Assembly: GCA_003599255.1 (NCBI GenBank)
Contig: QZJF01000017.1
Location: forward strand, 35,940-99,939
Direction of reading: 5' to 3'
Length of the DNA stretch: 64,000 nt
Source: a candidate division WWE3 bacterium
Lineage (GTDB): Bacteria; Patescibacteriota; WWE3; UBA101185; UBA10185
Shown here one piece after another: positions 13,765-52,500 of this stretch. The notes under the pieces are model-generated. The model had not been told where the DNA came from and made no database searches. It saw only the letters and a list, made by a program, of their open reading frames with translations. The translations under genes and the position numbers were made by a program. Positions within the stretch are counted from its first letter, which is position 1; each line of letters opens with the position of its first letter.

Positions 13765-16700
13765 ATGTTCGATGTTATAATTGCAATTGAAATGGTACGC
13801 AGTATCCTTCGAAAAAAAACTTTTAAATCTTTTCTGTTTTTATCCTTGATAAGTCTTATAAGCGCGGGTACATTTCATGTTTTTGCTCAGGGTGTAGGAG
13901 ACAATTATGTTATGGGAGGTCCCCCTCCATGGTGTCCTCCCCCTGAACATCCGGGACTTTCCTCTGTGTGCGGAACGGTGAGAGGTTCTCAACTCGAAGT
14001 GGACGGACGTGGTAATTACATGCCTAATCTCCCGAAGGAAGGTATTACAGTAGCTATTTATGAGGAAAACCCTCTTACACCTACAGGAAAAGTTAGTGAC
14101 GAAACAATAAATGCTGAGGGTGCCCTTTCTAATATTTTTGCCTCTACATCTACAAACAGCGAGGGCCGCTATCATATCGTGATGAGAAAAGTCGGACCTC
14201 CGATGGTCAGAACACACCTCGTTTTTCTGTGTGGAAGTACTGTTGTAGGTCATAAAGAGCTTGATTCCTGGCATGATTACTGGGAAGTGAACGAACAGGT
14301 AAACTGTCCTGGAACTCCTGCGTATACACTTCCCGGGTTTCCCCAAAACTATGTCGATCGATCGGGGTTTTTAGGATGTTTTAATGACCCTGTTGTGGAT
14401 ATTCCCACCGGACTGTCCAAAAACGAACAACCGACGGTAAACAACATTGGGAGGGAGGACAATTATGATCACAGGTATAATAGAAATACTTTCAGTTTTA
14501 CACATCCATTTCCTGATCCACCGGTACCGCCTTTGAGTTTTGAAAGTCCAGGAGGTTTGTGGGAACCGGACTGCTTATTAAGGAAAAACAAATACCTGTG
14601 TAATGCCGGCCCTGCGAATGCCGCGCCACCGGCCCCGACATCTTGTGATTGGAATACACTGAGCACTCAACCCCAGATAGACAATCGGGACACCCCCCTC
14701 TGGTATGCCGGATATACGGTAGATGGTGAGCTTTGCGAGGACCCCTACACCCCTATGCAAGAAGATGATAGGAGAGACTATATTACAAGACCGTTCTTTA
14801 TGTTTATTCCTAAAATCGCAACCACAACAGAGGGATATCGACGATTTGATATACGCGTAAATCTTGAAAACTACATCGCGGACCCTCTGATACCGCTTCA
14901 GTGGATGTGCAAATTTTGGGGATGCTCTGCAGGGGCGCCCAGTGAGCCTCCGCATGTGTTCCTTAGAAAATTCATGCAGGATAATACAACGTTAGATCTT
15001 CTTCCGGACTGTGAAGAACTGAATAAGAGGAATAATGCCTATAAGATTTTCAGAAATCCCGAAAGAAATAAACAATTAAACGGGGGTCCGTTTGGAGGCA
15101 TGGCTTCTCCTTCTGATGATTTGGAAAACGCATACTACGCATCACTTAGAGACCTTAGTGAGCCTATCTGCGTTACACCCACGAGAGATCAAACCAATCC
15201 CGTGCGACTATGCGAAATTCAACCGACATGGTCACCTGCAGGGGTTTGTACCGTAGGAACTCCGGGATGCAATGACCCCGAATTTTCAACAAGATTGAAT
15301 CAGACGCTTAGTACGGCAACTGACCCCAACGTCATAACAGGTATTACTAATGCCCTGTCCTTATGCACCGGTGATTTTGTTCTTGGCAGTGAATACTTCC
15401 CAACTGACGCAATTTTCAGAAATCAAGCTTCATACACCGGAATGACTTCCAGGACAGCCAATGACTCACAAGGTAACACTGCAACCAAAAAACCGGTTGT
15501 ACACGAAGCTTTTGACTCCGAAGATGTAAGTACTCATGAGTCAGGATCCAGGGCAGTACAAGATCCCGGCGGTAGATTCAAAGGCAATTCCGCATTGAGC
15601 CCGGAATCCGTAATAAACCTTCAAATGCAGGTACCGGGAGCGGAATCGATGACTGATCCGTTTACAATACCTTATGCTGATGTCAAAGTTGATTATCTGG
15701 ACGAAGTTAGCTGGGGTATGGCGGATTTCGGAACGAATCAAATACCTAAATGTACCATTGGAAATCCCTTTAGCTATTTGTTGAATACGTTAGCCCAGGA
15801 ATCAGATACAAATTTTCATCCGGATAACATCTATAGGGGTAATTTGGATCATGTAGAACATAGGGCGGTAGGAACCGGAACCTTCTATCCCTCACTAGAT
15901 TCTAAGGATAGAGATATTGCTATGGGAACCAGAACATTTATCGGATATTACTGGGGAGTCGGCTTCAGGGAGTTAGGTGTCCAAAGCGATCTGGTAAATA
16001 TAGCGTTAAATACTTTATGGGGAAGAGACGTTTGGGACAGTATATTGTCTATAGCGGGCGGTGACACCAATATCCATAACTTCACATTTGACATAGGCGC
16101 CGTATTGGCAACCGGGTGGGATGCGCTTGCAACACCGGAGCATATTTTTAAAACATTCGGGGACAGAGACCCCTCACAACAAACCCCATTTGAGAAGCCT
16201 TACTATGAAATAGAGTATCCCGTTAATGAAGCCAATTTCACCACATTCTTTGAATTACCAAGTATAGCTGCCGGAGATCAACTGCTTCCTACTGATTGGG
16301 GTCCTGCACACGTTTGTTATGCCTTTGATCCTCCAAATCCAAATGTACCTGAGGGAGAAGTGTGTGGCACGTACAGAGAAGATCCTGATGGAATATCAAG
16401 AACGTGTCGTGTAGATGAATGTATTGCTTTCTGGCAGGTCGAGAGCCAAAGATGTGAGTGTACAACCAGCGATGGAGTTAACTTTAATTGTGACTGGGAA
16501 GATCCTACATGGGACATTGATTTCGGCGATTGCGATGTGACTGAACGTCTTGAATGCGCATTTGAACAGGAAACAACTCCAAGGAGCGCGGACGGCAGAC
16601 TTGGAGGAGGAGATCCTGAAGCACCTAATGAAATCATCCACGATGAGGACCCGGATGTGGATCCGGGCAACGGTGGAACTCACGACGATTATGTCGGTTG

Positions 16701-18075
16701 CTATAACAGTAGTGGCGGCAGATGTCCTTACGATCCCCCCAGTGTCGAAGCGACTCATAACTGTACTGATAGCAATATTAACTGGAGCAATTGCTTTGAT
16801 TCATTAGGTGTATGGATCTGCGGAACCATAACAAGGGGGTACACCCGTACTACCACAGGGGATACAAAACCACGCTGCGATATGTCCGTTGCAGGACCTT
16901 TAAAGGGCGGTATTGGATGCAATGCCACACTAACAATAGGCGATGTTGCCTTGAGATACAGTCAACAAAATCCATATGACCCGGGCGACACAATCAACCC
17001 TTATTACAAGCCCCAAGTAAACCTGGATGATATGTACATATCCGGGGTAAAGCTTTCCCTTTCTTTCAGAGCGCCTTATCATCCCGCAGTGAAAGGTTCT
17101 AAAAAGGCGACTTTGGATGCAAGAACCACAAACAGTCCTATGGCCACCGAATATGCTTATACTTACGGTGCGGAATTAGATACCGGAGGATGGTCGGACT
17201 ACGCCAATATTGCTCTTATAGCTACTCCTCCGGTTTTCGACGGCGACCCGACGGATGACCTCGCAGAATTGTTCTATCACTGCGATACCATAGGCTCCTT
17301 TACACCTATTGGAGCAAACGATCCTCCTGCCGTGCAAGTTGCAAGTATGAATGTACTTACAACATATGATCCTGAATTAGGATTAGCGGTGACAGACACA
17401 GATGGGGACGGGGTAGCCGATGCAGCATTAATGGGCTGGCAATGTCCAATAGACAACGAACCGGTACCTCCTGTAGCCGAGTTGTCTGATGTCAGCAACA
17501 ATTGTACGGTAGACGCAGGCACTCTTGCTTCTTGCGGGGCAGCGTTTCCCGAAGTACCGGATTTACTCTCAGAAACATTTAGAATTGTAATAAATAACGC
17601 CGCCACCAGATTCGATATACCAGCGGGCGCCCTAATTGCAATTCTTGCCAACGAGGGTGGTTTTGCCTCTGTTTATCATTCTCTGTGGGCAGATGATCTC
17701 ACGGTGCAAAGATGGAGCCTTCCTTACTACGGACGTATGGATGTTGGGGGGCCTGTAACATGTATCGATATGGTATGGTCGGCACAAGGTCCTTATCAAT
17801 TCCTCAAAACTTCATTTGACTCCTTCCTGGCACAATCGGGCGCTCCAAATGAAAGCCTTTGTGCGGCATTAAATGAAATTTCACCGGGCAGATGTCTGTC
17901 TGCCAGCAGATGCAATTTCCTCGATGCATCGTACGCCGCAGCAAGACATATGCAAGCGGGAGGAACTTGCGGCAGCTTTAACTTCGCCACTGCGATGGAC
18001 AGTTATAGCGGGGGATCAATTGCGATTGAGGGAGATATCGGATATCTTCAGAGCATATACAACGCATGTAATTAA
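13765..18075 (+). CDS. giant secreted/surface protein (1436 aa), Cys-rich, with possible C-terminal lysozyme-like domain
   Basis: Signal-peptide-like start (FLFLSLISLISAGTFHVFAQG) and many Cys and Pro/Gly-rich segments. The C-terminus has ILANEGGF...GPYQFLKTSF, resembling the SLT E-S...GLMQ motif arrangement. Its GC is higher than the flanking DNA. Confidence 0.5.
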   Translation: MFDVIIAIEMVRSILRKKTFKSFLFLSLISLISAGTFHVFAQGVGDNYVMGGPPPWCPPPEHPGLSSVCGTVRGSQLEVDGRGNYMPNLPKEGITVAIYEENPLTPTGKVSDETINAEGALSNIFASTSTNSEGRYHIVMRKVGPPMVRTHLVFLCGSTVVGHKELDSWHDYWEVNEQVNCPGTPAYTLPGFPQNYVDRSGFLGCFNDPVVDIPTGLSKNEQPTVNNIGREDNYDHRYNRNTFSFTHPFPDPPVPPLSFESPGGLWEPDCLLRKNKYLCNAGPANAAPPAPTSCDWNTLSTQPQIDNRDTPLWYAGYTVDGELCEDPYTPMQEDDRRDYITRPFFMFIPKIATTTEGYRRFDIRVNLENYIADPLIPLQWMCKFWGCSAGAPSEPPHVFLRKFMQDNTTLDLLPDCEELNKRNNAYKIFRNPERNKQLNGGPFGGMASPSDDLENAYYASLRDLSEPICVTPTRDQTNPVRLCEIQPTWSPAGVCTVGTPGCNDPEFSTRLNQTLSTATDPNVITGITNALSLCTGDFVLGSEYFPTDAIFRNQASYTGMTSRTANDSQGNTATKKPVVHEAFDSEDVSTHESGSRAVQDPGGRFKGNSALSPESVINLQMQVPGAESMTDPFTIPYADVKVDYLDEVSWGMADFGTNQIPKCTIGNPFSYLLNTLAQESDTNFHPDNIYRGNLDHVEHRAVGTGTFYPSLDSKDRDIAMGTRTFIGYYWGVGFRELGVQSDLVNIALNTLWGRDVWDSILSIAGGDTNIHNFTFDIGAVLATGWDALATPEHIFKTFGDRDPSQQTPFEKPYYEIEYPVNEANFTTFFELPSIAAGDQLLPTDWGPAHVCYAFDPPNPNVPEGEVCGTYREDPDGISRTCRVDECIAFWQVESQRCECTTSDGVNFNCDWEDPTWDIDFGDCDVTERLECAFEQETTPRSADGRLGGGDPEAPNEIIHDEDPDVDPGNGGTHDDYVGCYNSSGGRCPYDPPSVEATHNCTDSNINWSNCFDSLGVWICGTITRGYTRTTTGDTKPRCDMSVAGPLKGGIGCNATLTIGDVALRYSQQNPYDPGDTINPYYKPQVNLDDMYISGVKLSLSFRAPYHPAVKGSKKATLDARTTNSPMATEYAYTYGAELDTGGWSDYANIALIATPPVFDGDPTDDLAELFYHCDTIGSFTPIGANDPPAVQVASMNVLTTYDPELGLAVTDTDGDGVADAALMGWQCPIDNEPVPPVAELSDVSNNCTVDAGTLASCGAAFPEVPDLLSETFRIVINNAATRFDIPAGALIAILANEGGFASVYHSLWADDLTVQRWSLPYYGRMDVGGPVTCIDMVWSAQGPYQFLKTSFDSFLAQSGAPNESLCAALNEISPGRCLSASRCNFLDASYAAARHMQAGGTCGSFNFATAMDSYSGGSIAIEGDIGYLQSIYNACN

Positions 18076-18244
18076 TCGCAATGCACGTACCACCCCCGAC
18101 GCTATCAACCGACAAACTCAACAAACACACACGCAGACATCGATAAACAAGGGGTTCATTAAATTAACTGTTTACCTGTTTGAAAACATGAAAATGAAAC
18201 TAAGTAATTGGTAATTGATGAGTTGATGCTCGTCGACAGAAAGC

Positions 18245-19597
18245 TTATCTGCCTTTCTTCTCGTTCATTATGGAGCTGTATATAAGGTCTGGTACCTTGA
18301 AAGCGTAGCCGTACCCGAATATGAATATGAAAAGAATTCCGAAGACAGCGTAGAGATAACCGGAAAAGCCTTGGAAATACCCATCCGGAGTCAATCCGTT
18401 CCTAATAATGATTATACCGAACATGTGAATAAGTTGTATTGTGGCGCTTATCGCTACTATCCCAAGACCCCAAGCTATCATCTGCTTAAACCAGTTGATC
18501 ATTTGACTGTCGTTCCCGGGTATCGCCGAGAGAGCAAACTTAAGCGGAGCGGTAACAATCGAGGTTATCATTTTCATATAAATCATTAATGCTTTAAATA
18601 GCGCAAAAAGGTACATGCCAAAAAGTATAACCATTGCTATAGCAACTATTATACCTACGGCCAGCCCACTACCTCCGGAGGCGATTATAAAACCTATTAT
18701 GACCATAGCAATAGCCCCGATACCGCCTTGAAGTGACGCTGTGTAATCCGTTCCTCCGCCCGTCGAGGCAGCAAGTGAGGCAATAATGCTTTGGGCGCTG
18801 TAGTAGAGAGACCATGCCAGACTGGTCATAAACGCACCAATGGGATAGCTAAAAGCTATAAGAACAAGCGCAACCACTATTTTGGGAAGAGCATATTGAA
18901 CGTTAACAACAACCTGTTGATTGATTCTCCTTCTGGTTATGATTGTAATGCCCACATACAGCATAATTAACGCCATTAAAGCGTAAGCGATATTTCGTGT
19001 AATTTTCCAGATATCAAGAATTGCGTTTATAAAAGTGTGCTGATAATCCACCGAATCGGCTGCAAAAGCCTGTTCACCCACAATCGGGATTTTTTTACCG
19101 TAATCCAGGAAAAAAAATGCGGTACTTACAGGAAGAGGCTCATACTTCAGATTATTGTCCAGGTAATAGGCTAAACCAAGTATGCTCCCGGAGACTTTGC
19201 TGCTTGCAAAACGTTGACGATCAAACTGTCCGTTATAAACAAACTGGTTGACTATGTTCCTACAAGTGTCTTCATCAGTAGCACTGCATCCCCAGGCCTG
19301 CATTTCTGATTGAACTTCAGGGAAATATTGGGAAACATAATCCGTGCAATTCATAAACTCGGCCATTTCAGTACCGGTTGTTGTTGTCCAAGTAAAATCG
19401 ACGACAGAGCTTGTCAAATGGTTGACCGCAGTTTCTCTGATATTTCTGTCATAAGAACTCTGAATTTTTCCAAACCATCCCTCAGGGGGATCGCACACAT
19501 TTTGGGCACTAGCACCAGGCGACAATAACATAGCAACAAATAAGAAAGGTAATATATAAAGAGTCTTTAAGGTTAAAGTGTTTTTATCTCCCAGCAT
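18245..19597 (-). CDS. VirB6/TrbL-like polytopic membrane protein
   Basis: Signal peptide, then an ~150-aa Cys-containing extracytoplasmic domain, then 6-7 Gly/Ala-rich TM helices (IGFIIASGGSGLAVGIIVAIAMVILFG), which is the TrbL/VirB6 architecture. Confidence 0.5.
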   Translation of the reverse strand: MLGDKNTLTLKTLYILPFLFVAMLLSPGASAQNVCDPPEGWFGKIQSSYDRNIRETAVNHLTSSVVDFTWTTTTGTEMAEFMNCTDYVSQYFPEVQSEMQAWGCSATDEDTCRNIVNQFVYNGQFDRQRFASSKVSGSILGLAYYLDNNLKYEPLPVSTAFFFLDYGKKIPIVGEQAFAADSVDYQHTFINAILDIWKITRNIAYALMALIMLYVGITIITRRRINQQVVVNVQYALPKIVVALVLIAFSYPIGAFMTSLAWSLYYSAQSIIASLAASTGGGTDYTASLQGGIGAIAMVIIGFIIASGGSGLAVGIIVAIAMVILFGMYLFALFKALMIYMKMITSIVTAPLKFALSAIPGNDSQMINWFKQMIAWGLGIVAISATIQLIHMFGIIIIRNGLTPDGYFQGFSGYLYAVFGILFIFIFGYGYAFKVPDLIYSSIMNEKKGR

Positions 19598-19695
19598 TTT
19601 TAATATTAAAGAAGTACAAGTAAAGTATAGCTAGTACAGAATCATTTAGCAATGATTCTTCCGAACAAGCTGAATCTATTATAGAATAGAAGCAT

Positions 19696-22600
19696 ATGGC
19701 AGACAATCCTTTTTATCCCGGATATAAACCGGAGCCCTGGGAACAAAAACCCTCGGAATTCTATCCCGGTTATTTCCCGGGAGCACCTCAACCCAGAAAG
19801 GGATACATTCCCCCTAATATAGGTCCGCTTCCTTATAACTTTGATAGTGTTCTAAAAGAGATCGATATGATTCAGGGGAATGTCGATCTTATGACCTCTG
19901 ATCTTCCTAAATGGGTGTATGAACGCGCCGTCGACGACTTCAAAAGATCCCTGCAGGTTACTATGAAAACCGCAGATATTAAGCCCGAAGAGCTGGATGA
20001 CTTCGATGCTGAATCAATACCGGGTGCATTTAATATAGGGGTGAGTTTGAATCCCATGGATTGGTGGAAAGATCCGGCGGGACAGGCTCAAAAAACGGTT
20101 AAAAACTGGGCAAAGGAAGCCTTTTCATGGAAAGACATAGACACTCGATTCAGAAGGGACCTATGGAGCCAAATATTGGACGAAAAACCAAACTATACCT
20201 TTATAGGTTCAAAAGAAGCGGCAGATGCACTGATGGAAAGGGTTGGTAGACGTCCCGCGGGCGCAGGTACGCCGTCAATCTCCGCACCGGGGGAAAATCC
20301 ACTGGCACTCAGAGGACTTGGTGTCATGGCTTACGATCCGGATACAAGTGGAAGGTCACAGAGGCAATATTTTGACTTCGCTATTGAAAGAGATACCGCA
20401 GGTCACGTTAAAAGGGAAAATAGAATTTTTGTAGACCCCTCCGGTGCTGCTGTGGTGAGAAGAGTACCGAAAAAGTCGGCGACAGATGTTGACGTTTACC
20501 GTCAAAGCGGGAGATATGACGCTTACGGCAAGCTGGCAAGTTCGGTAATCGAGTTTGAAACAAAATCAGGGTATGCAGCAAGTCGTCAAAATGCATACAC
20601 CGATGTACTTAGAGACACAGTACATGCTATTGACGCGGATCTTGGGCAAGCAAAGTACCGTAATGTTATTAATGCCGACGTTGACAGAAAGAGAGCATAC
20701 GATATCTTCAGATCCCAGGCCGACACTCTAGCAGACATGGAAGTATTACAAAAAAGGTTTGGAAAAGCGGTCTCCGATATAAAGGAGGGAACACTTCTTA
20801 ATTCAGACCGCACAGACTGGGACCGCTGGGATTCTATAAATGAGCAGCTTGATAAATCTCTTGCAAATATTGAAACAAGCTACGGAGTGGGGGGAAAGAT
20901 TGACCTTGTGGACAGAAAAGAAGCGGAGAAGATGCGCCATTTTATAGATCCTTATAAGCAGCATCTTGAACAAATGCGTGATCAGGAGCTGTTGCAAATT
21001 GCAAGGGAGAGAAAACGCCTTTTAACGGAAAAGGAACGCTCCCTTCCGGCACAGCTGCGTGCCGGTACCATAACGCAGGATCAGTTTGACACCCAGATCA
21101 AATCAGTCAATGACAGACTTAACGATATTCACCGCACCGCCTCACAAGGAAAAAGGACTCACGCCAGAAACCTTACCAGCTTGGGAAGAGGCCCTTTTAA
21201 CGGCAGAGGGTATCTTTATAACAACTCTTATATAGAGGTTTACGAGCGCAGACTCCTAGAAGAAGTCGTAACAGTTGACTTCTTACGCCCCAGAGCAAGA
21301 GGTAAAAACAAAAGGATTGGAGATGTAATAGCGGAAGTACCCGGAACGCACGCCTCAAGAGCTATTGGGGTTTTGAACAGAATTGAATATGAAAATCAGG
21401 TAATGGCCATAGATGAGGTGTTTGATGCGTTGACCGAAGGAAAATTCCTAGAGAGATATGTCTGGAACAAGGTTAAAACCTATATTGAGCCCCTCACCCC
21501 GGCATATTGGACAAACAAGGCTTTGGATGGTGTGCATTACTTTGGGTTGAAATTAGGTAAGGACGTTGACTTTGAAAAAACATGGCTTGGCAATATTGCC
21601 GGCACCGGTCGTGCGGCAGGGTCTTATGCCGCTCTGTCTAAAAACCAGTTACAACTTTCCAGAGACATAATCGCAACCCAAAGTGAGTTGAAAAAAGCAG
21701 GGCTTTCGGCCGCAAATAGAGCCAAGTTGAATAGCGATTTAGCGACATTACAGACAAACCTGACATCCGTTCGGGGAAGAATAGACGCACTAAGCGAAAA
21801 AGGTCCCGGTAAATTCTGGGGTAACTGGTTCAACATGGAATTTGACGGAGGTCACCCAAATAGACGGGGACAAGTGGATGCATTTGTATCAAACGTACGA
21901 ATCAGTGGGAGATTTTACGGAGGCGCTCATTTCGCAAGTATAGGGGGTCTGGCTCAGTTAAGAGGCATGGTTCACTCAGGGGAATGGACTCCTGAAGCTC
22001 TAGCTTATTTTATAAAAAATGTAGATCACACAGGTTTGGCGAATCCGGCGTTTTTACAGCGTTTAATGGCTCTCAATGGAAATCGGGCTATCGTTCTTCC
22101 GCCCGGAATCAATGCTGAGGAATTTGCGAATCAAGTTATCAACCTCAGGCAATGGGTTCTAAAAAACAGAAAGAATTTCAGTTCCAACGTAAACATGGAT
22201 TCGGATGCCTTCTGGCTCGGTTTTGTGGATATGGTAGCCCACAAGATGAAGGACCCGGATTTCAAATTAATTGGAATCACCAAGAGATATGCAGGATTGT
22301 TTGAAAAACTGTGGAATAAACTGAACGAATTCCAAACAATGCTTTTCACCAAGTTCGGTAAAGTGTTGGCACCTCTTTCTTATATTAAGACGTTTATTGC
22401 CGAAAAAATAGCCGATATGATACCCAAACTGCTATCACTAATAGCTGGCGGTGCCTCCGGAGGAACTCTCGCTATTGTTACAGAAACCTTGGGGCGTGTG
22501 CTTAGACCCATCATACGTTTTGTCGTAAGAAAAACTCTGGATTTCGCACAAAACTTCGTTGGCGGGCTGATACGAGGAGATTTCTTTAAGGCTTTTGCTG

Positions 22601-23382: not shown

Positions 23383-23396
23383 TATATAATTAAAAT

Positions 23397-24038
23397 ATGA
23401 ACATAAGCAGGTTTATAAGTTTCAACGACGCCAAGACAAGAAAAAGAGCCGTGGGTGTGATATTTATGGCAATAGTACTGTTATTGATAATTTTGGTCTC
23501 AGATCCCCAACCTCAACAACCTACAACCGATACAGACGTTCCCGGCGAAAGTCCTGCTGTTGTTCAGGACTACGAGAGCCCAAATGCGTGGAACGGTATA
23601 AAACCTGGTACTCATAAAATCACCGATGTGGCGAATTTCTTTGGAACTGAAATACGCGACGATTATCAAGGGGATGGCAAGACAAAATATTTATATGATT
23701 ACTACGGTAAGGGAGGCCATCCGATGGAAGTCATAACCGATTATGTGGGAACTATTGAATACATGCGTGTTCCGTTAAATGAAACTAAAGTAGGTAGTCT
23801 GGACACGTACAGAGAAAGTCTCAAGCTCGGCGTAGCGGACATGGAATTGTATAAAATTGGTGAGCCTGAAGGCATCAAAGTATATGTTTTTCTTGAGGAG
23901 GGCGTAGCATTCGAAGCAAATCAGTATGTAAGGGAAACATACGCCATCAGATTTTTTGTCCCTACTGATAAAGATACATTTTTAAGATTATACGGCAGAG
24001 ATTTATCCGAAAATATTGAGGACGCTTCAAAATTTTAG
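23397..24038 (+). CDS. N-terminally membrane-anchored hypothetical protein
   Basis: 213 aa, TM helix AVGVIFMAIVLLLIILV, then a Pro/Gln-rich linker and a soluble domain. It starts 15 nt after the 1228-aa gene. Confidence 0.4.
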   Translation: MNISRFISFNDAKTRKRAVGVIFMAIVLLLIILVSDPQPQQPTTDTDVPGESPAVVQDYESPNAWNGIKPGTHKITDVANFFGTEIRDDYQGDGKTKYLYDYYGKGGHPMEVITDYVGTIEYMRVPLNETKVGSLDTYRESLKLGVADMELYKIGEPEGIKVYVFLEEGVAFEANQYVRETYAIRFFVPTDKDTFLRLYGRDLSENIEDASKF

Positions 24039-24836: not shown

Positions 24837-24901
24837 AGGGCCTGAGCATGCCCAGGCCCCGTGTTAAATAGTCTAAAACTATTATGCACACAATGGTGAC
24901 G

Positions 24902-25234: not shown

Positions 25235-25268
25235 ATGTTTAAGTTTTTATCTATTCACCTCCCTTACA

Positions 25269-27080: not shown

Positions 27081-27168
27081 CTACTATCAAATTATCGGGG
27101 TTAGACACACAACAGTCAAGTAAATCGGGTCTTCAGTCGGGACAATGTTTTGATATAATCAGTATTGC

Positions 27169-41934: not shown

Positions 41935-42097
41935 CTCCTTCTTTTTTATTTCCTACCCGAATTCGGGGTTAGGATCATATAATCTTTTTGGTACGAAATT
42001 ATTAGCAAAAAAACTATCTGATCACAACCCCTGTATTTTTAAAAGAACCTCGGAAGGCAACAGTCACTTTTCAGTTTACTATTGCCTTCCGTAGAAA

Positions 42098-43132: not shown

Positions 43133-43278
43133 TAGAATCTTTCTGTACGCTCCTCTCTTTCTAGTATTTGACCCTTTTTTTAATTGGGTAGAATTTGATC
43201 ACAAAAATATTATGTTCAAAACCCACCGAACTAAATTCCAAAGAGCGGTCAAAAAGGATATACCTTTAGTAACCGCTC

Positions 43279-44715: not shown

Positions 44716-44735
44716 CGGGGTGTCCTTTCGAGGGG

Positions 44736-46679
44736 TTACCCCTTTGCAACGGTATCCCGACGACGAAGGTAGGCCTCGAGACCGTGCGGAAGTTTGATAT
44801 AAAGGTCCTTGACCAGTATATGACCTCCCTGCCTCGCTTCACGTACAGTAGCCCACTGGTAATCATCGAGGCTAAGCTCCACCACGATCGAGAACGAATG
44901 GGCAAAACCCATAGGGAATTCCCTAAGTTCTTCTTCAGTGTGAGCCGCCATGATTGTTCTGATACCCGCCTTACGGCAGTTGTCCAGAAACCAGCGGAGA
45001 AACTTGCGAAGATTTCCACCAACCTCAGAAGGTACCGTACCAAGGTACACATCGGAATCTGAAGAGGGGATGCCTACCAGATCATCGACCATAACAACAC
45101 ATCGACGCCCGGTTTCCCTGTGGATCTGCTTCCATGCCTCGGTCCATTTGATTAAAAAGGTGTGCACCCACTGAAAGTACAGGGTACTGCCTTCAATTTC
45201 AGGACGGATAACGAGAGGAAGTACCTTCCCGCTGCGTCTGTAATCTTGGATTGCTTCTGCAACAAAGGCAGTTGCGTCCTCGATTATGACTTTCAGTCTC
45301 TCGCGGATCTCTTCTTCAGTGCCGGGATCCTGGATGAGCGAAGCTTCCAAGACCTTGACCTGCCCTCCAAAATCGGGTGCCCAAAAGTTGGCGCCTGCTT
45401 CCGGATCGGCAGAACACTGAATTGTCACGCTCTCTGTTCCTTGCTGAAGCATCCAGGCCGTTGCCAGCGTGGTTTTTCCAGCATTGGAGGGTCCCAGCAA
45501 AAGAATCGACGGAACCTCTTCAATCGGTATGAAGTATTGAGTCTCCTTACCGATCCATCCAAGACACAGATTACCTCCCAGCATAGCATGGCTCACACCT
45601 GACGTGAGTTGCTCCAGAACAAAAGACGGCTTTGCCAACGTGTGTTCAAACCAGCGCGGGGGCGGTGCGGCACCGGGCACATACGCCTTGAATGCAACAC
45701 GCACTTTCTTTCCCCGCAACAGTTCGAACTTACCTAAACGGGCAAGCTGGTTTTCGATAACACGAAAGTCCGGCTCACCGTTGGCCAAGAACGAAGACGT
45801 CTCCGCACGAATGATAATCGTGGCATAGACCTTGAATCTGGTTTTACCGTTCACGTTAGGTAAGAACTTCCGACGCAACCGGGCGAGAACATCAACATCA
45901 AGTGCCATCAGACCTTCGACATTGTGATCTCCCAGAATTCCTGTGTAGAAGCGGTATGCCTTCTTTTGACCCGGGGTGACTTCTATTGTGTAATAGCTGT
46001 CTTCCCAAGTTACTTCCGTGGCCGCATACACCATCGGATCTTCCAGAACCGGGGTATACGAGAGCGGCATCCGCAACAACACGCTTCGCAACATGGGTCC
46101 CGCGTTATTAAAGTCTCCGTCATACTGAGGAATTACTCCCCCAAGTGCGCCGGTGGCTTCTTCTCCGCTGGGGATCATGCTTGAAGCGGGCCCCCACATG
46201 ACCATATCACGCCCACGCTTGGGTTCCAGATTTGAGGGAATGCTCCATTCTTTCTGGACTCCGAGGTATTGTTGATACGACCTCAAGGGGCGATGTTTTG
46301 CCGCAGCATTGAGTAAATCAACATGGGGCTGAACATCTTTTTTTACCGCCCGGATCAACACCATTACGGGGTTGTTCCCATAGAAACGAAATGCTTCTAA
46401 AAGGTTAACGGGACGATGATGAGTTGCCAGTGCCGTCAAGTGCCTAAACTTTTCAGCACCGTTCCCTGTTCCTGTTCTCAGAAACGAAGGATAAAAAACC
46501 GTATGGTTGCGCCTGCCCAAAGACAGAGCACAAAGCTCCAAAAGATCCATCGCATTTTGATACTCTATGTTTCTTTCGGGGCTTAATTCCACTTCTTCCC
46601 CAGACCCTAAGAGTGCGGGGTGGTTTCCGTTTTTCTGAGGCGCCTGCCTCTTCAACAACGGGGCCAACAGATTCTTCAT
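44736..46679 (-). CDS. VirB4/TraC-like secretion ATPase (Walker A/B P-loop NTPase)
   Basis: 647 aa. Walker A LLLGPSNAGKTT sits ~400 aa in, followed by hydrophobic-DD (VVMVDDLVG). The N-terminal non-ATPase domain suggests a VirB4/HerA-FtsK superfamily architecture. Good RBS GGAGGT. Confidence 0.5.
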   Translation of the reverse strand: MKNLLAPLLKRQAPQKNGNHPALLGSGEEVELSPERNIEYQNAMDLLELCALSLGRRNHTVFYPSFLRTGTGNGAEKFRHLTALATHHRPVNLLEAFRFYGNNPVMVLIRAVKKDVQPHVDLLNAAAKHRPLRSYQQYLGVQKEWSIPSNLEPKRGRDMVMWGPASSMIPSGEEATGALGGVIPQYDGDFNNAGPMLRSVLLRMPLSYTPVLEDPMVYAATEVTWEDSYYTIEVTPGQKKAYRFYTGILGDHNVEGLMALDVDVLARLRRKFLPNVNGKTRFKVYATIIIRAETSSFLANGEPDFRVIENQLARLGKFELLRGKKVRVAFKAYVPGAAPPPRWFEHTLAKPSFVLEQLTSGVSHAMLGGNLCLGWIGKETQYFIPIEEVPSILLLGPSNAGKTTLATAWMLQQGTESVTIQCSADPEAGANFWAPDFGGQVKVLEASLIQDPGTEEEIRERLKVIIEDATAFVAEAIQDYRRSGKVLPLVIRPEIEGSTLYFQWVHTFLIKWTEAWKQIHRETGRRCVVMVDDLVGIPSSDSDVYLGTVPSEVGGNLRKFLRWFLDNCRKAGIRTIMAAHTEEELREFPMGFAHSFSIVVELSLDDYQWATVREARQGGHILVKDLYIKLPHGLEAYLRRRDTVAKG

Positions 46680-46960
46680 CAGTAGAAACCTCCTGTTCGT
46701 TTTTTTGCCTCTTAACCTGTATGGCTAGGGCTTAGATCCGCTTTCCTAAATAAAGAAAAACAGGTCAAAGCCCTAGTTCAACTTACGGTTAAAGGCACTT
46801 TCTAGATTGTAAAAGTACAACTTAAGCTGTTTCGATCTCAGTCATTTAATTGACGCGATCTCATCAGGCCCGGGAATTACCGGACTACAGGATAAGAAAT
46901 TAAAAGGAGCGGGTGCCCAAAACAGAACTATTGTTTTGTCTTGGGACACCCGTAGTGCTC

Positions 46961-47254
46961 TCATTTGAACCGATGCTCGGTAATTCTGGTGGCCATGGAA
47001 GGCTCCCGAATGTGCGAGGGCTCTATGTAAATTTTCCTATACCGTCGATCCTGGAACTTCAAAATGATCTTGAAGCACAAAAACACCAGGAAAACGGCCA
47101 GAATAACCGGGAGTGCATACTCCGGCATTCTGTATACAAGGAAAAAGGACATAAACGCCAACCCGTAACCGATCTTTGTAATCTTTCGAGGTTTATACGT
47201 CGGATCACAAAGTTCGAACCAAGCATCAACGAGACGTCTAAGCTGTTTTCTCAT
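46961..47254 (-). CDS. VirB3-like small membrane protein
   Basis: 97 aa with two hydrophobic helices. It lies upstream of the VirB4-like ATPase and overlaps the stop of the VirB6-like gene, i.e. the VirB3 position in T4SS operons. Confidence 0.35.
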   Translation of the reverse strand: MRKQLRRLVDAWFELCDPTYKPRKITKIGYGLAFMSFFLVYRMPEYALPVILAVFLVFLCFKIILKFQDRRYRKIYIEPSHIREPSMATRITEHRFK

Positions 47255-49209
47255 GTCACCTCCTCTTCTACAATATCGTCGTCGTACTTGCTCAGATCCG
47301 GCGGCTGTAGAGATTCAGAGGAAGACTGTGTTGGTGACTGAGGTCGTTCTTCCGGGACAAAGACGTCCACCAGAGTTCCGGCTATGCCCAGCACAACTTT
47401 CGCGCGGGGGTCACTTACCATCCCTGCACCGACATGCGCTAGATCTCCTACAGTCCGGGCAACGTTACGTCCGTTTACACGGGGGCGTTCGGTCACTTGG
47501 AGCTCGGAAACCTCAACGTAGGTAGCGTCGGGATGGGAATCAGCCACAATGGTGTCCAAATCAATTTCCCTAGTGGTCGTTTCCACTACGTTAGCGTCAA
47601 CGACTCCGTCTGCCTCTCCTGGGGATATAACACGATCTTGACGATCGTAACGAGCAGCAGCCTCAACTCCCTGAACATCCGGGAAATCAAAACTGTCGCG
47701 CACGTCATCCTGAAGAGAAACAGAAACTTCCTCCGCAACGTTGGTGTCTTGCAAGACCGCATCCTCGTCCGCACCTGTAATATCGGGCGTTCTTCCAACG
47801 CGGTCCAACGTCTCCGATGAAATGACATCAAGGTCACCGCCGGATATAATCGGGGAATCCCCACCAACAGCAACAGCTGAATCGCCGGCTGTGATATCGG
47901 AATTATCCCCGAGATTTTCAATGTCAGTTTCTTGAATTTGGGAACTGTCTCCCTCAACCGTCACGGCCGAAAGATCCAAGTCTCCTCCTTCAATGCCTTC
48001 CGATTCAACAACACTCGTATCATCATTGCTATCGATCAGCAATGAATCATCCCCGTCTACAACTGTGTCCCCGAGTGAACTTTCCTCGGAAACTACGGTA
48101 CGAGAGTCGATATCGGTTTCGGCAGAATCGCCCGGTTGATTTGCATCCTCGGGAGATCCTAGCACCACATTGGGATCGGCATCTTGCCCATCACCGTTGC
48201 CACCAACGCCGCCTGGACCACCGGGGGCACCGCTGCCTCCTCCGTTTGGACCCGAAGGACCATTGGATGTGGATGAAGAAACGGTATTGTCGCCATCTTC
48301 GCCATCACTTCCGTCAATAGGAAAGGGAAGAGCTACGATTGCGCCATCTATACCGTCTGCATCGCGGGCTGTCCCGTCAACCGCGTCCGAGTCATCGGCC
48401 GAGGTTTGTTGGTTTGTAGACACGGTCTGAGTGTTCGTGCTCCTGCGGGTTGACAACCCTAGTGCGGGAGCAAAAACAATCATGAGTGCCGGCGGAACCA
48501 CGGTCATTGTGATGAACAACAGGATTACAGCTATAAGATAGCTCCCGTTGTAGTTCGACAATGTGGCCTCTACTACGTTGGGCATTCCTTCGGCGAACTC
48601 CGTTACCAGAGTGTAATACGCCATAGGAAACATTGCCCAAGCGCCTGCTAAAACCCATGCCATAAGAATGGGTTTGAAACTTACATTGATGACTGCGATC
48701 GCTACTAGCGTAATGATCGTCAGCCCCAGGAGCATTTCCCAGATTTTGTAATAATTAGGGATTTCCCTGGTAAAGCCTGCAGCCAGGTTCACAGTGACCG
48801 GATTAGAGTCACCCTCCAGAATCTCCAGCCACCCCATCAGGTCTGCGACCCAGGGAAGACCTAGCTCCTCCGGAAAGAACATGCCTTGGCCTATCTGTGT
48901 TAACAGATTGAAGACCATTGGCGTAATGGCTGCAGCTATCATCAAACCCATGCCCTTACCATACTCAAGACCCCAGTCTCCGCCTGTAATAACGGGTACC
49001 AGAGTGAGAATCAAAAGGGGAGGGATAGTCAACAGGTAGAAGGCCGATGCCAACCTATTGAGCAGCTCTGGAGCAATCGTGACGTAAAAAGATTCGCGCC
49101 ACGGTGGCTCGTTAGCGATAGTATCGGCCAAATTGTCACCACATCCGCTTAGAATAAGCGACATGGCAACTAGGGATACTATCTTTAGGAGAAGTCGCCT
49201 TTTTGCCAT
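47251..49209 (-). CDS. VirB6/TrbL-like polytopic lipoprotein with long acidic low-complexity C-terminal region
   Basis: Lipobox LSGCG, 6-7 TM helices in the N-terminal ~280 aa, then ~370 aa extremely rich in D/S/G/E/T/V (DGSDGEDGDN...GGGSGAPGGPGGVGGNGDG...). Confidence 0.5.
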   Translation of the reverse strand: MAKRRLLLKIVSLVAMSLILSGCGDNLADTIANEPPWRESFYVTIAPELLNRLASAFYLLTIPPLLILTLVPVITGGDWGLEYGKGMGLMIAAAITPMVFNLLTQIGQGMFFPEELGLPWVADLMGWLEILEGDSNPVTVNLAAGFTREIPNYYKIWEMLLGLTIITLVAIAVINVSFKPILMAWVLAGAWAMFPMAYYTLVTEFAEGMPNVVEATLSNYNGSYLIAVILLFITMTVVPPALMIVFAPALGLSTRRSTNTQTVSTNQQTSADDSDAVDGTARDADGIDGAIVALPFPIDGSDGEDGDNTVSSSTSNGPSGPNGGGSGAPGGPGGVGGNGDGQDADPNVVLGSPEDANQPGDSAETDIDSRTVVSEESSLGDTVVDGDDSLLIDSNDDTSVVESEGIEGGDLDLSAVTVEGDSSQIQETDIENLGDNSDITAGDSAVAVGGDSPIISGGDLDVISSETLDRVGRTPDITGADEDAVLQDTNVAEEVSVSLQDDVRDSFDFPDVQGVEAAARYDRQDRVISPGEADGVVDANVVETTTREIDLDTIVADSHPDATYVEVSELQVTERPRVNGRNVARTVGDLAHVGAGMVSDPRAKVVLGIAGTLVDVFVPEERPQSPTQSSSESLQPPDLSKYDDDIVEEEVT

Positions 49210-49236
49210 GGCCTATTCCTTTTGGGCTCTTCGAGC

Positions 49237-49509
49237 TTAGGGAATAAGCCCGATAAAGAAACTGGAAATCTTGTCTACCAGCCCGCCGGGAGCAACACCG
49301 TTTTCGACGATGTTGAATGCAAAACCGACGGCCAAGGCGGCTGCCAGGAACAGCTGGAGAACCATCATAAGTCCGCCGCTATCCTTGCTGTCGCCAGCGC
49401 CCTTTACGAGACCCTTTGGACCCAAAAAGACGTTCCAAAGGAGCCCGATGATCCCCGCCAACATGATGAATTCAAGGATTTGGCGGGCCAAGGTGTTTAA
49501 AGCTTCCAT
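49237..49509 (-). CDS. VirB2/TrbC-like pilin-family protein (paralog 5)
   Basis: Start set at the internal ATG at 49509 with GGAGGT upstream. 90 aa with two hydrophobic helices separated by an LGPKGLVKGAGDSKD loop. Confidence 0.45.
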   Translation of the reverse strand: MEALNTLARQILEFIMLAGIIGLLWNVFLGPKGLVKGAGDSKDSGGLMMVLQLFLAAALAVGFAFNIVENGVAPGGLVDKISSFFIGLIP

Positions 49510-49842
49510 CGTATACCTCCGTATAGGTTGGGACGCGTCGCAACAAAGCGGCACATCCATTGGATTAGTGGCACCCTCTTTTTCAGGGATGAACACAAGC
49601 TACCCTCCAGTAGGGAACCTGAAAGGCAGTTCGTGTTCATCCACGAAGGGTGTGCGCCGATTATTGGTTCAAATGAATAAAATTTTAAAGAGCACAAACA
49701 CAACACTTCACACCATAGGTGCTACATGCTTTATTCTATTACTCTCTTTCCTCTCTTTTATTTGGGCAAAAAAAGCTGTAAAGCTTTTCCATTACAAACA
49801 ACTAAATCTTAATTGTCTGTATTTGAAAAGTTTTAAAACTTG

Positions 49843-49889
49843 AAGGGAAGGAAAAAATTCGGATAGAATCCGTAACGTTTTCCTTCCCC
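49843..49889 (-). terminator. hairpin terminator downstream of 49905..50585
   Basis: GGGAAGGAAAA...TTTTCCTTCCC perfect 11-bp stem, 4 nt after the stop codon. On the minus strand it is followed by a T-rich stretch. Confidence 0.35.
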
Positions 49890-49904
49890 TTTTCTCCGAA
49901 ACTG

Positions 49905-50585
49905 CTAAGCGGGTACTGCTTCTGCTTCTACAGGAACAGGTATTTCTTCCGCAGCAGGTTCGGGGGATGTATCGTGGCCGTTCTTGCCGTAGGGCTTGAA
50001 CATTTTGGCCTGTTCCTCTTCAGGAACATTATGCACCTTTGCCAGGGCCTCGAAGAATTCTTTCATACCCTTGGCGACCGGAACCAGCGTAGAGACACGT
50101 CCCTCGATACCGTTGATGCTGAATACGAAGTTGTGCGTTTCCGGGTTGTACATCACCGCAAATTCGCCGGACACAACTTGTGTTTTGGCCGGGGAGGGAG
50201 TGCGCACTATGTTCAGAAATTCCACCATTTCGACAGGGGTGCCAAAAAGGTTGAACTCGATGTTCCCACCGCCACGCCGAGGCTCGAGTTTCATGGTGGA
50301 CTTAGCCGCCAGATCCTTAATTGCCTCTTTCAATGCCTGGGGATCGTTCAGAAGGGCTAACAGCACGGCTAACTGGCGAAGTTCTTGCCATGCGGCTCCC
50401 CATTCAGTATCCAGGCGTACCCGTTCTTTCAAGTGGCTCTTGAGTGTATCCGGGTCAACATTGAACAGCGTCGATATCTGTTCCGGCAAAAGAAAAGCCT
50501 GCAGGTTGAGCCGAGTGTTTGCCACCCGCTGACGAGCTGGCTTTGCAGTGCCCTTATCATTGTGATTGTCTTTACTCATGATCAA
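49905..50585 (-). CDS. hypothetical cytoplasmic protein
   Basis: 226-aa ORF, GC-rich, with no recognised motif. Confidence 0.4.
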   Translation of the reverse strand: MIMSKDNHNDKGTAKPARQRVANTRLNLQAFLLPEQISTLFNVDPDTLKSHLKERVRLDTEWGAAWQELRQLAVLLALLNDPQALKEAIKDLAAKSTMKLEPRRGGGNIEFNLFGTPVEMVEFLNIVRTPSPAKTQVVSGEFAVMYNPETHNFVFSINGIEGRVSTLVPVAKGMKEFFEALAKVHNVPEEEQAKMFKPYGKNGHDTSPEPAAEEIPVPVEAEAVPA

Positions 50586-51021
50586 TCTCCTTTATACGTC
50601 TGATGGAATCGGTTAAAACTGAATTCAGCAATTCGGTTTTTCCTACGATATGTTGTTCAGGTGCACACCTCTCTTTCTTATTTTTTTTTCCTAGCTGGAT
50701 TAAGCTGGGATCATAGGTACTCGTATTCTCCAACAATTTGAAGAGAATAAGGGTATGTAAAATCCAAGCTTGAATCTGCTATAAGATAACCGAAACGGAA
50801 TGCTTGAAGTTTACACTAATGAAATAAAATGTCAACACATCGCATAGGGAATAAGTGGGCTATAGCTGGATAAAATACACATGAGATGTTGCGTTTTAAT
50901 TTACTCCAAGTATAATGACGACACATCTATATAGGCTAAGACCTAAAAGAAGGAGAGCTTATGAAAATTCGCACGTTGATCTCTAATTCCACATTCTCTA
51001 TTACGAAAGGATAAGGGAAAA

Positions 51022-52500
51022 ATGAAGAAATTTGTAACCACCTTGTTGCTGGCCGCGCTGGTGTTAGCGGGAGTTATGCCCTTGTTTAACAGCCGAAATG
51101 CAATGGCAGAAGCGCCGGTTTCCGGGCTTCCTGAAGCCCCTGCCGGTAGGAATGATTTAACCCCCATTTACGATGCAGAGGGAGTTCAGATCTATCCAGT
51201 GTTCCCTGACAAAACGGCTTTCGGTCAGGAACAGATAGTTTTTACGGTGGATATACCAACTGACCTGCAGGATGAAGTCTGTGAAGACCTGGATGATCCG
51301 TATATAGACCCGGCAACATGGGGCGACATGGACGACGCAGACAACCATGCCCGCCTGGACGTTGTTTACTGCAACGGAGCGTATCATTTCCGAGCATGGT
51401 CTGTCTGGGCAGGGCGTCCGCCAATGATCGGTGAATGGAACCTTCAGAGGCTTGTCCTCGACTGGCAACTTACCAACCTTACCGACAATGTGATTTATGA
51501 CAGTGGGCATTTGGAAACTGTCGAAGATCCTGTCGAGGAAGGCGGACCCGCGGTTGTTGAGGGACAAGTGGTGCTTCCCGTGTCGGGCAAGACCTACCGA
51601 ATGCATGTCATTGCGTACACCAGACAACTGGGGTGCGATAACGGCAGTGGTCAGATAGAGTTTATCTCAACACAGGTCGCGCCGGTCGGTCAGATCGACG
51701 TCCTGAAAACCGATCAGAACAACAATCCCGTTTCCGACGTTACAATGGAAATGTGGTTCCGAAACAAGGTCGGGGAGTGGGAACTTGGATCCGTTAAACA
51801 AACCGATACGGCAGGCAACGTTTCTTTCGCCGCGCCGCAAGGTAACTATAAAATCGCGGAACAGCTGGACACCCTGCCGACAATGTCTTATCCGGTGAGT
51901 CCTGCAACAGGAGAAACCGAAGAGTTCTTGGTAGATCCTGAGCATCAGGTTGTGCAGGTAGAATTCGTCAATTTTGTGCCGAAGGTTATCTATCTGCCGC
52001 TGATCATCAAATCAGGACCTCCGGAGGTCTGTACCCGCTCGGCCCAGATTTCTTACATTGACCGGGCCGGTCTGTACCAGTCGGTGATCCGTAAGTTCAC
52101 TTCAACCGGTGCCGAAGTATTCAGTGTAGGAGTTCTTCCATACGCAAGAGTGCTGACAATAAGCATGACCGACGGGAATCCCGTTGAACTCATGACTATT
52201 CAGTCAGTTACGGCGGACGGGGGCAGATATACATACACCGACGACCAAGGACCCGTATGGAAATACGCGGGAACCTGGGACCACGACAAGGACATCCTTC
52301 CTGCCGATGTAACGTGGCTGCGTGTTGTGGACATTCACAACGCCATTGCCGAGTACCATGAGGGGGATGAGTTGTGTGTGCTTAATGTGCAGGCCCAGTG
52401 GGATCCGCCCGAGCTTCAGCAGCTTCAAGAGCAACTAGTCGGGGGCGCCATTACTCCTGCAACTTTCTACGAAGCGGCAGCTATTCTTTCAGGAAAATAA
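51022..52500 (+). CDS. secreted hypothetical protein
   Basis: Clear signal peptide MKKFVTTLLLAALVLAGVMPLFNSRNAMA and a 492-aa mature protein with no recognised catalytic motif. Confidence 0.5.
   Translation: MKKFVTTLLLAALVLAGVMPLFNSRNAMAEAPVSGLPEAPAGRNDLTPIYDAEGVQIYPVFPDKTAFGQEQIVFTVDIPTDLQDEVCEDLDDPYIDPATWGDMDDADNHARLDVVYCNGAYHFRAWSVWAGRPPMIGEWNLQRLVLDWQLTNLTDNVIYDSGHLETVEDPVEEGGPAVVEGQVVLPVSGKTYRMHVIAYTRQLGCDNGSGQIEFISTQVAPVGQIDVLKTDQNNNPVSDVTMEMWFRNKVGEWELGSVKQTDTAGNVSFAAPQGNYKIAEQLDTLPTMSYPVSPATGETEEFLVDPEHQVVQVEFVNFVPKVIYLPLIIKSGPPEVCTRSAQISYIDRAGLYQSVIRKFTSTGAEVFSVGVLPYARVLTISMTDGNPVELMTIQSVTADGGRYTYTDDQGPVWKYAGTWDHDKDILPADVTWLRVVDIHNAIAEYHEGDELCVLNVQAQWDPPELQQLQEQLVGGAITPATFYEAAAILSGK

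Follow-up and report, generated by a model that had tools for sequence, protein, structure and literature searches.

A pilin-array locus and a type IV secretion-like operon with a Rho-family ATPase in the chromosome of a WWE3 bacterium

Patescibacteria account for a large share of bacterial diversity and live attached to hosts. Here we analyze two GC-rich blocks in chromosomal DNA of an ultrasmall candidate division WWE3 bacterium (Katanobacteria, within Patescibacteria or the Candidate Phyla Radiation), which lie at 13765-29000 (block 1) and 40301-52500 (block 2) of a stretch of 64,000 nucleotides, hereafter called the window, and which encode proteins resembling parts of type IV secretion systems (T4SSs). 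The closest described systems are the chromosomal, relaxase-less T4SSs with pilin arrays that were reported between 2023 and 2025 to be widespread in Patescibacteria, and one of which is essential in the cultured Saccharibacterium Southlakia epibionticum (PMC12102498; PMC12857230). Their VirB4 proteins were found with a VirB4 hidden Markov model (HMM), most copies forming one clade within MPF-FATA, and the T4SSs of this clade have 2-11 divergent VirB2-type pilin genes (PF18895 or PF04956) and a TrsD-like protein with VirB4 (PMC12102498). Microgenomatia and Saccharimonadia are rich in VirB2 arrays, detection of VirB6 is difficult in Microgenomatia, and WWE3 finds no mention in the text of that survey or in the supplements searched (PMC12102498).

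An original prediction, made from the sequence of the window, had assigned both blocks to one minimal T4SS or pilus apparatus distributed over two islands. The results of our analysis support its view of a chromosomal, mobilization-free gene set of T4SS/pilus-like character, a class by now described (PMC12102498; PMC12857230), and all the open reading frames (ORFs) it had listed were found in their places; they do not support a single apparatus. With a probability of roughly 0.6, we consider that the window contains two evolutionarily separate envelope modules, namely a vertically inherited pilin-array locus in block 1 and, in block 2, a self-contained T4SS-like operon with a Rho-type ATPase. 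The latter protein (40624-41934, minus strand), which is strictly linked to the operon and constitutes its most unusual component, had been left out of the predicted parts list.

The operon of block 2 is formed by eight genes on the minus strand, the products of which comprise, in the order of transcription, 226, 90, 652, 97, 647, 478, 344 and 436 amino acids (aa). Related loci, designated here by L numbers, were sought from homologues of the 647-aa ATPase and, independently, from an alignment of the Rho-like protein. The core order is identical in ten distinct complete loci (the window, L001, L006, L009, L015, L016, L017, L026, L027 and L028), in all of which the gene of the Rho-like protein comes last, and the truncated loci of incomplete contigs agree with this order. 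Named hosts of the operon belong to WWE3; two metagenome-assembled genomes carry the unverified labels Saccharibacteria and Pseudomonadales. In monoderm (MPF-FATA) type IV secretion systems the genes follow the order PrgH-I-J-K-L. Since the core order of the operon matches it, and since this class is related to the VirB4 of Patescibacteria, we read the operon as a minimal monoderm T4SS-like translocon. Sequence models recognize little of it: a Pfam scan of block 2 returned M23 (7e-21) and ATP-synt_ab (5e-12) only, and PHROGs, NCBIfam and PADLOC added nothing specific.

The 647-aa protein (44736-46679, minus strand) is a soluble ATPase of a rare VirB4-like family that escapes detection by HMMs. 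It is 100% identical to the WWE3 hypothetical protein C4561_03755 of NCBI, the neighboring genes being C4561_036xx-037xx. A word-indexed search of 5.8 billion proteins retrieved only the ATPase itself and one relative with 52% identity, and exhaustive HMMER searching of 1.84 billion cluster representatives found 56 relatives. The VirB4 models (PF03135 CagE_TrbE_VirB and related ones, together with VirB4/TrbE/TraC of NCBIfam) matched neither the window protein, at E values up to 5, nor any of the 52 aligned members of its family, while against the PDB the family profile aligned with nothing beyond the P-loop region of EssC and FtsK. That this ATPase goes unrecognized by the models of Pfam and NCBIfam and has so few relatives argues that it lies outside the VirB4 clade of Patescibacteria or is extremely divergent.

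Structural comparison points to VirB4 nevertheless, so that the VirB4-like ATPase of the original prediction stands on its predicted fold even if every HMM tried fails to recognize it. The AlphaFold2 model built from the 52-sequence alignment (pLDDT 91) has VirB4/TrwK as its best structural match over both the N-terminal and the RecA-like C-terminal domain, the best structures being TrwK/VirB4 of R388 (PDB 7o42) and VirB4 of Thermoanaerobacter pseudethanolicus (PDB 4ag5); sequence identity to these is 10-15%, and Walker B reads DD. The modeled protein thus has the two-domain fold of VirB4. Chains of HerA and EccC align with the model over approximately 200-255 residues only, corresponding to the P-loop domain, and the Foldseek TM-score to HerA is about 0.27. 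The ATPase holds a single P-loop domain, and membership of the HerA/FtsK group or of the EssC/EccC group of type VII secretion systems was rejected, as we found no HAS-barrel N-domain and no tandem FtsK-like domains with FHA. A match to PADLOC mad8 (20.7 bits) was judged to reflect generic P-loop similarity. The closest viral structural match (in BFVD) is Gp155 of Bacillus phage G (549 aa; E = 1.7e-14, TM-score 0.47/0.54), which suggests that VirB4-like ATPases may also be present in a giant phage.

The last gene of the operon encodes a 436-aa ring ATPase of the Rho family. This protein matches Rho structures of the PDB with E = 5.8e-23 when used alone and with E = 2.5e-40 as a seven-sequence profile (residues 77-391 of Escherichia coli Rho, 1pv4), the alignment including the Walker motifs, the ER pair (E211/R212), the GG of the Q-loop, the K of the R-loop and the Arg finger. 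Neither Rho_N nor Rho_RNA_bind was detected, ATP-synt_ab (PF00006) being the only Pfam match; as for the primary site, the segment that holds E108, R109 and Y110 is missing, and there is no conservation of Y80. Judging from its sequence, the protein has a Rho motor domain with both Q-loop and R-loop but lacks the canonical N-terminal RNA-recognition domain. The Rho model of NCBIfam gives it 108 bits against a cut-off of 315, and its close relatives (39-51% identical) likewise match PF00006 only, without PF07497 and PF07498, genuine Rho proteins appearing only past a drop from 296 to 89 bits. As the loops of the secondary site are intact and the primary site is lacking, the protein probably threads single-stranded nucleic acid irrespective of its sequence.

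Between the first gene and the ATPase the operon encodes three membrane proteins, for which the evidence is topology and gene order. The first gene (49905-50585) specifies a soluble 226-aa protein, acidic in its tail, in which the C-terminal motif ...VPEEEQAKMF is conserved; it is 32% identical to a 320-aa protein of L001, L009 and L015 encode related proteins upstream of the operon, and elsewhere this position holds a different small membrane protein. The second (49237-49509, with an alternative upstream start, GTG, at 49596) encodes a 90-aa membrane protein predicted to form a two-helix hairpin, with orthologues of 81-99 aa in L001, L006, L009, L015, L017, L027 and L028; none was detected in L016 and L026, and L010 and L011 carry ORFs of 149-152 aa at this place. 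This protein shows no match to PF18895 and an hhalign probability below 1% against the pilins of block 1 (global mode only); by its topology, it may be regarded as a candidate pilin or membrane subunit. The 652-aa product (47251-49209) has a lipoprotein signal (LSGC), four to five transmembrane (TM) segments and an acidic low-complexity tail of approximately 390 aa. All six listed orthologues have a Cys after the N-terminal hydrophobic segment, five reading (A/S/T)GC and that of L010 PNC. Neither Pfam nor NCBIfam matches it, and we found no detectable homology to the polytopic family of block 1; by position and topology, it is a candidate VirB6/PrgH. The small 97-aa membrane protein that precedes the ATPase (46961-47254), the gene of which overlaps the upstream gene, has orthologues of 99-123 aa in the same place in most loci (none was detected in L026). 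HMM searches with it were without match, so that the VirB3-like protein of the original prediction retains its position and topology but gains no HMM similarity, and it can be considered a candidate VirB3/PrgI-like subunit.

The gene for the membrane-anchored cell-wall hydrolase (478 aa; 43279-44715) lies directly 3' of the ATPase gene in all loci. Its C-terminal M23 peptidase domain is clearly recognized (PF01551, 7.3e-21), as had been predicted; the additional soluble lytic transglycosylase (SLT) part of the predicted VirB1-like enzyme is visible at motif level only. Upstream of M23, seven orthologues share ES..G followed about 70 aa later by G..G(I/F)(L/I)P(S/T)T, motifs of the MltB/SltB type, which the family profile aligns with the catalytic ES and AGAMGQxQFxPxT of SltB3, a family-3 lytic transglycosylase, at a non-significant E of 2.2. 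The putative lytic-transglycosylase domain is thus a lead, no proof. By its M23 domain and its place beside the ATPase, the protein corresponds to the dedicated peptidoglycan hydrolase (VirB1, PrgK or CwlT) of VirB4-based systems. The next gene (42098-43132), conserved in every locus, encodes a 344-aa membrane protein with three TM segments and a soluble C-terminal domain; it has no match in Pfam, PHROGs or NCBIfam and occupies the PrgL/VirB8 position of pCF10-type operons, a VirB8 analogy that would follow from gene order only.

From these components the most likely working mode of the translocon can be sketched. The 478-aa hydrolase, with its lytic-transglycosylase-like and M23 parts, would open the wall, and the lipoprotein-anchored polytopic protein would form a membrane channel or short filament with the two small hairpin proteins. 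Assembly would be powered by a hexamer of the VirB4-like ATPase, docked via the small VirB3-like protein, and the hexameric ring of the Rho family would act as substrate motor in place of the missing VirD4 coupling protein, threading single-stranded nucleic acid or, less likely, unfolded protein. In its boldest form, this scheme makes the operon an unrecognized branch of the T4SS superfamily, in which a Rho-family ring without the rut-recognition domain replaces VirD4 and moves single-stranded RNA or DNA through a minimal channel of VirB3-, VirB4- and VirB6-like proteins. We regard this extended proposal as doubtful, with odds clearly against it, but if it were true, nucleotide-auxotrophic episymbionts would gain a dedicated route for importing nucleic acid from the host or for injecting it into the host.

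The pilin-array locus of block 1 has a different composition. Its core is an array of four adjacent genes (24035-27080, all on the minus strand), the products of which all have two-helix hairpin topology. The largest (603 aa; 25269-27080) combines a signal segment and a Cys-rich extracellular region of approximately 500 aa (58 Cys) with a C-terminal T4SS_pilin domain, its residues 527-591 matching PF18895 with 30.2 bits and thus above the gathering cut-off of 26.6 bits; orthologues with PF18895 have 620 aa in L008, 352 aa in the P0069 contig and 329 aa in L012. The paralogues of 110 aa (24902-25234; 23.6 bits, E = 5.5e-5) and 117 aa (24483-24836; 24.1 bits, E = 3.9e-5) fall just under this cut-off, and the fourth (155 aa; 24035-24502), which has a signal segment followed by the hairpin, reaches only E = 0.19, even if it shares the loop motif ...GDP...A...Y/WA..G... 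with the neighboring pilins; the L008 gene at its position encodes 136 aa and has no recorded Pfam match. PF18895 is also found in the arrays of L008, L012 and L013. Among the five VirB2/TrbC-like pilins originally predicted, the four of block 1 are therefore T4SS_pilin-like, whereas the fifth (49237-49596, in block 2) has the hairpin topology only.

The array is always flanked by a gene encoding a coiled-coil protein with a SpoIID domain associated with cell-wall remodeling (27169-28977, plus strand; PF08486, 4.3e-18), which lies at the edge of block 1 and in the same place in L008, the P0069 contig, L012 and L013. A polytopic membrane protein of 450 aa (18245-19597, minus strand), with a signal segment, an outer domain of approximately 170 aa and five TM segments, has 59 homologues that belong to WWE3 or Microgenomates wherever the organism is named, and its gene adjoins the pilin array wherever a related locus was read (L008, the P0069 contig, L012 and L013). 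In UniRef it bears the name 'Type IV secretion system protein', an annotation rather than a test; neither Pfam nor the PDB gives a sequence match, even with a 46-sequence profile; we consider it the candidate VirB6 of the locus. The two VirB6/TrbL-like proteins of the original prediction are thus polytopic indeed, but neither matched a TrbL or VirB6 model or a solved structure.

Two giant proteins complete the locus. The first (1436 aa, 44 Cys; 13765-18075, plus strand) is secreted or anchored, with one N-terminal hydrophobic segment, and has syntenic counterparts of 1284-1629 aa in L008 and the P0069 contig; its C-terminal 'ANEGG ... GPYQF' motif might be taken to resemble lytic transglycosylases. 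The second (1228 aa; 19696-23382, plus strand) has a single TM segment (residues 982-1000), followed toward the C-terminus by a HETGH (HExxH) motif, and syntenic orthologues of 1127-1275 aa. Pfam and NCBIfam searches were without match for both. A bitopic membrane protein of 213 aa is encoded next (23397-24038, plus strand), and proteins of 210 aa in L008 and of 163 aa in L013 occupy its position, matched by size and place rather than homology. The recurring order is SpoIID, pilin-fusion gene, at least three pilins, giant protein, polytopic protein and second giant, often beside SmpB, and loci of this type are conserved in other WWE3 genomes and in one Microgenomates genome (L012). This arrangement matches the VirB2 arrays reported for Microgenomatia and Saccharimonadia (PMC12102498), and in block 1 the known class of relaxase-less chromosomal T4SSs of Patescibacteria with pilin arrays gains a new member. 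The most likely function of block 1 is to form a surface filament or adhesin that contacts the host, or to decorate such a structure.

The strongest competitor of the two-module reading is the single apparatus of the original prediction, in which block 1 would contribute pilins, a second VirB6 and adhesins, and block 2 the VirB3/VirB4 motor and the wall hydrolase of one T4SS or pilus. No ATPase is present in the block 1-type loci of the window, L008, the P0069 contig, L012 and L013, that is, in every genome examined, whereas block 2 offers one about 11 kb away; moreover, a related WWE3 keeps the two-block arrangement on its 52-kb contig, and pilin arrays of Patescibacteria often, though not always, lie near virB4 (PMC12102498). 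Yet the operon occurs elsewhere without its partner, since a test of ten more loci with the operon, of which eight are complete, gave no block 1 homologue within 10 kb, and the block 1-type loci L012 and L013 have no operon nearby. Block 2 also has a hairpin protein, a polytopic protein and a hydrolase of its own, hhalign detects no homology between the corresponding membrane parts of the two blocks (global mode only), codon composition differs between them, with a shift at third positions in block 2 alone, and a canonical VirB4 elsewhere in the genome would be another possible motor, the search having covered the window. The blocks are independent modules that lie close together only in this WWE3 clade, and for this reason one split apparatus is unsupported; we consider it unlikely. 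Cooperation in trans is nevertheless possible, given that block 1 itself lacks a motor.

Base composition bears on a further alternative, according to which block 2 represents a mobile element, decayed or cryptic (an integrative conjugative element, conjugative transposon or prophage remnant) inserted between the genes for L25 and valyl-tRNA synthetase (ValRS), its GC reflecting foreign origin. The predicted existence of two GC-rich blocks is borne out: GC is 0.448 in block 1 and 0.494 in block 2, against 0.400 in the left flank, 0.388 in the middle and 0.411 in the right flank, with edges, at 300-bp resolution, at approximately 13.9, 28.8-29.1, 40.4-40.7 and 52.6 kb, within a few hundred bases of those predicted. 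The two excesses differ in kind. In block 1, GC varies from 0.375 to 0.52 per kb, and the excess is confined to the first and second codon positions (GC1 0.505, GC2 0.439), GC at third positions (GC3) being 0.411 versus 0.394-0.399 in the flanks, which indicates secreted proteins rich in Gly, Ala, Arg and Pro with native codon usage and no signature of foreign DNA. Block 2, which tops all 12.2-kb windows for GC, has an overall GC3 of 0.525, compared with about 0.40, and none of its nine genes, the divergently transcribed 492-aa gene at its edge included, falls below 0.48; this is a real shift at synonymous sites. In most genomes the operon is GC-richer than its surroundings, and GC3 is strongly raised in the clade of the window. 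(Elevated GC, and in some lineages GC3, of the operon relative to the host genome was observed at 40301-52500 of the window, at 6000-16200 of L001 and at 4000-11767 of L010.)

The shift of every gene in block 2 would fit a mobile element, as would the varying contexts of the cassette (histidyl-tRNA synthetase in L006, YchF with S6/SSB/S18 in L009) and the resemblance of the ATPase fold to Gp155 of phage G. An IS200/IS605-type Y1 transposase gene also adjoins in L010 (2156-2827), about 1.5 kb upstream of the operon on this one metagenomic contig. However, WWE3 RIFOXYC1_FULL_39_7 has both modules at the sites they occupy in the window, one on the SmpB side and the other between L25 and ValRS, the operon showing the same insertion point and orientation even if the ATPases are only 52% identical. 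The proteins of the operon are 32-64% identical between these two genomes while the flanking proteins are 59-93% identical, a disparity that mobility could produce; still, shared sites in a relative with such flanks show that the blocks are long-resident rather than recent islands, and since the GC excess holds in that relative too, simple recent transfer is inadequate to account for it. Recurrent replacement of the locus, gene conversion and selection on codon usage are possibilities; under the Rho-driven conduit considered above, the GC3 excess might reflect frequent recombination or gene conversion at the operon. As had been predicted, no relaxase, type IV coupling protein (T4SS-DNA_transf, TraG, FtsK), integrase or replication gene was found in 13.2-52.5 kb with Pfam, NCBIfam and PHROGs, nor, in block 2, a capsid gene, coupling protein and relaxase being required of conjugative systems only; no flanking direct (att-like) repeats were found around block 2, and plasmid, phage and IMG/VR collections yielded no relatives of its operon. 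A mobile origin of block 2 is thus highly improbable. Slightly less probable again is a nucleic-acid processing or defense module of HerA/FtsK type, or a type VII-like system, for which a P-loop translocase next to a helicase-like Rho paralogue would speak but with which the structure of the ATPase described above is at variance.

Several points weigh against the interpretation of the window as two separate modules with a T4SS-like operon. The ATPase is not recognized as VirB4 by any sequence model, nor are the membrane proteins recognized as VirB3, VirB6 or VirB8, and the lytic-transglycosylase assignment of the hydrolase is statistically insignificant. For the Rho-like protein, which JGI annotates as Rho, an alternative is that of a divergent transcription factor transcribed together with the operon, perhaps one specialized for the operon itself. 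The persistent GC3 excess of block 2 in several lineages is left without explanation, and a canonical VirB4 of Patescibacteria elsewhere in the genome would be the natural partner of block 1, the search having been confined to the window.

The remaining genes of the region can be described briefly. At the edge of block 2, transcribed divergently from the operon, lies the gene for a secreted 492-aa protein (51022-52500, plus strand; GC3 0.56), which has no match in Pfam, PHROGs or NCBIfam, is not among the genes of L001 and is a possible cargo or accessory protein. A hairpin with a 17-nt perfect stem (52537-52572; 94% complementary, 2-nt loop) separates the convergent ends of this gene and valS, and is probably a bidirectional terminator at the right edge of the block; a promoter and terminator scan gave results at chance level. 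The genes between the blocks encode GT-C-type glycosyltransferases, a DUF5657 protein and ribosomal protein L25. Among them, five consecutive large polytopic membrane proteins (29015-36561), one of which has a GT87 domain, look like GT-C-type glycosyltransferases of an envelope-glycosylation cluster. The following trio (36618-39137, plus strand), consisting of a 188-aa membrane protein, the DUF5657 protein and a 575-aa protein, directly adjoins the SpoIID/pilin-array locus in Microgenomates L012 (1226-3822) and therefore may serve block 1 functionally.

On the left side of block 1, a tmRNA gene (tag peptide AEDNDFAYADVAVPAYAGVAA) lies beside smpB (12780-13187 and 13241-13711, both on the minus strand), and SmpB is the conserved left neighbor of the pilin-array locus among WWE3 genomes. 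Integration of block 1 at the tmRNA was considered and rejected, given that the 3' end of the tmRNA faces away from the block and that codon usage is native; a 118-aa ORF overlapping the tmRNA (12873-13229, plus strand) is probably spurious. Further into the left flank, the listed ORFs at 5419-6261 and 8620-9318 (both minus strand) overrun tRNA-Ala (6201-6276) and tRNA-Ser (9271-9358), their 5' parts being probably non-coding, and a 134-aa ORF (6382-6786, minus strand) has, within this AT-rich region, a composition like that of block 2 (GC 0.479, GC3 0.52). In the right flank, a pair of the MurT/GatD type (61097-63015, minus strand; Mur_ligase_M with MurT_C, and GATase_3) would indicate, by its domain content, peptidoglycan amidation in the WWE3 host.

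The general idea of the original prediction was already known, but the VirB4-like family missed by HMMs looks new, as does the strict way in which a Rho-family ATPase is linked to it, since neither the searched literature nor the family libraries describe this pairing. A T4SS-like system is essential in the one genetically tractable species of Patescibacteria; a compact, strictly conserved operon of seven to eight genes with a Rho-type motor provides a concrete substrate hypothesis, namely RNA or single-stranded DNA. It also follows that HMM-based surveys can miss a whole family of VirB4-like proteins, and that GC-rich blocks in genomes of Patescibacteria are not necessarily foreign islands.

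Compared with known systems, the window is closest to the T4SS of Patescibacteria as represented by Southlakia epibionticum ML1, with which it shares the phylum-level group, a monoderm envelope, a chromosomal and relaxase-less setting, arrays with PF18895, a VirB4-like part and, as candidates, VirB3- and VirB6-like parts, hydrolases of M23/lysozyme type beside the ATPase and a presumed role in epibiotic interaction with the host. It differs in that its ATPase is invisible to the VirB4 models of Pfam and NCBIfam and belongs to a family of just 56 representatives, that the pilin array is a separate locus, that no TrsD candidate is evident among the operon genes (by inspection, no profile search being involved) and that a Rho-family ATPase, reported by no searched paper, is obligatory in the operon.

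The Prg/Pcf system of Enterococcus pCF10 is a plasmid system with the relaxase PcfG, the VirD4 coupling protein PcfC and the adhesin PrgB. It resembles the operon in its order of polytopic protein, small VirB3-like protein, VirB4, wall hydrolase and bitopic or oligotopic membrane protein, and in a monoderm envelope without outer-membrane core; in contrast, its hydrolase combines SLT with CHAP instead of a lytic transglycosylase-like part with M23, it has no Rho-like ATPase, and no sequence similarity to it was seen. Rho of E. coli (1pv4) has a motor domain homologous to that of the 436-aa protein, with catalytic and loop residues aligned, but also possesses Rho_N, the RNA-binding domain and Y80/E108/Y110 of the primary site, whereas the 436-aa protein tracks a secretion-like operon.

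The archaeal Ced system of DNA import consists of the polytopic CedA, the small membrane proteins CedA1 and CedA2 and the VirB4/HerA-like ATPase CedB. Like the operon, Ced (also mentioned in PMC12102498) combines one polytopic and two small two-helix proteins with a VirB4-like ATPase and has neither relaxase nor VirD4. It differs in being archaeal, in having no wall hydrolase and no Rho-like partner, and in an ATPase encoded apart from the membrane genes. Ced moves nucleic acid, and its likeness to the operon of block 2 is one of gene set.

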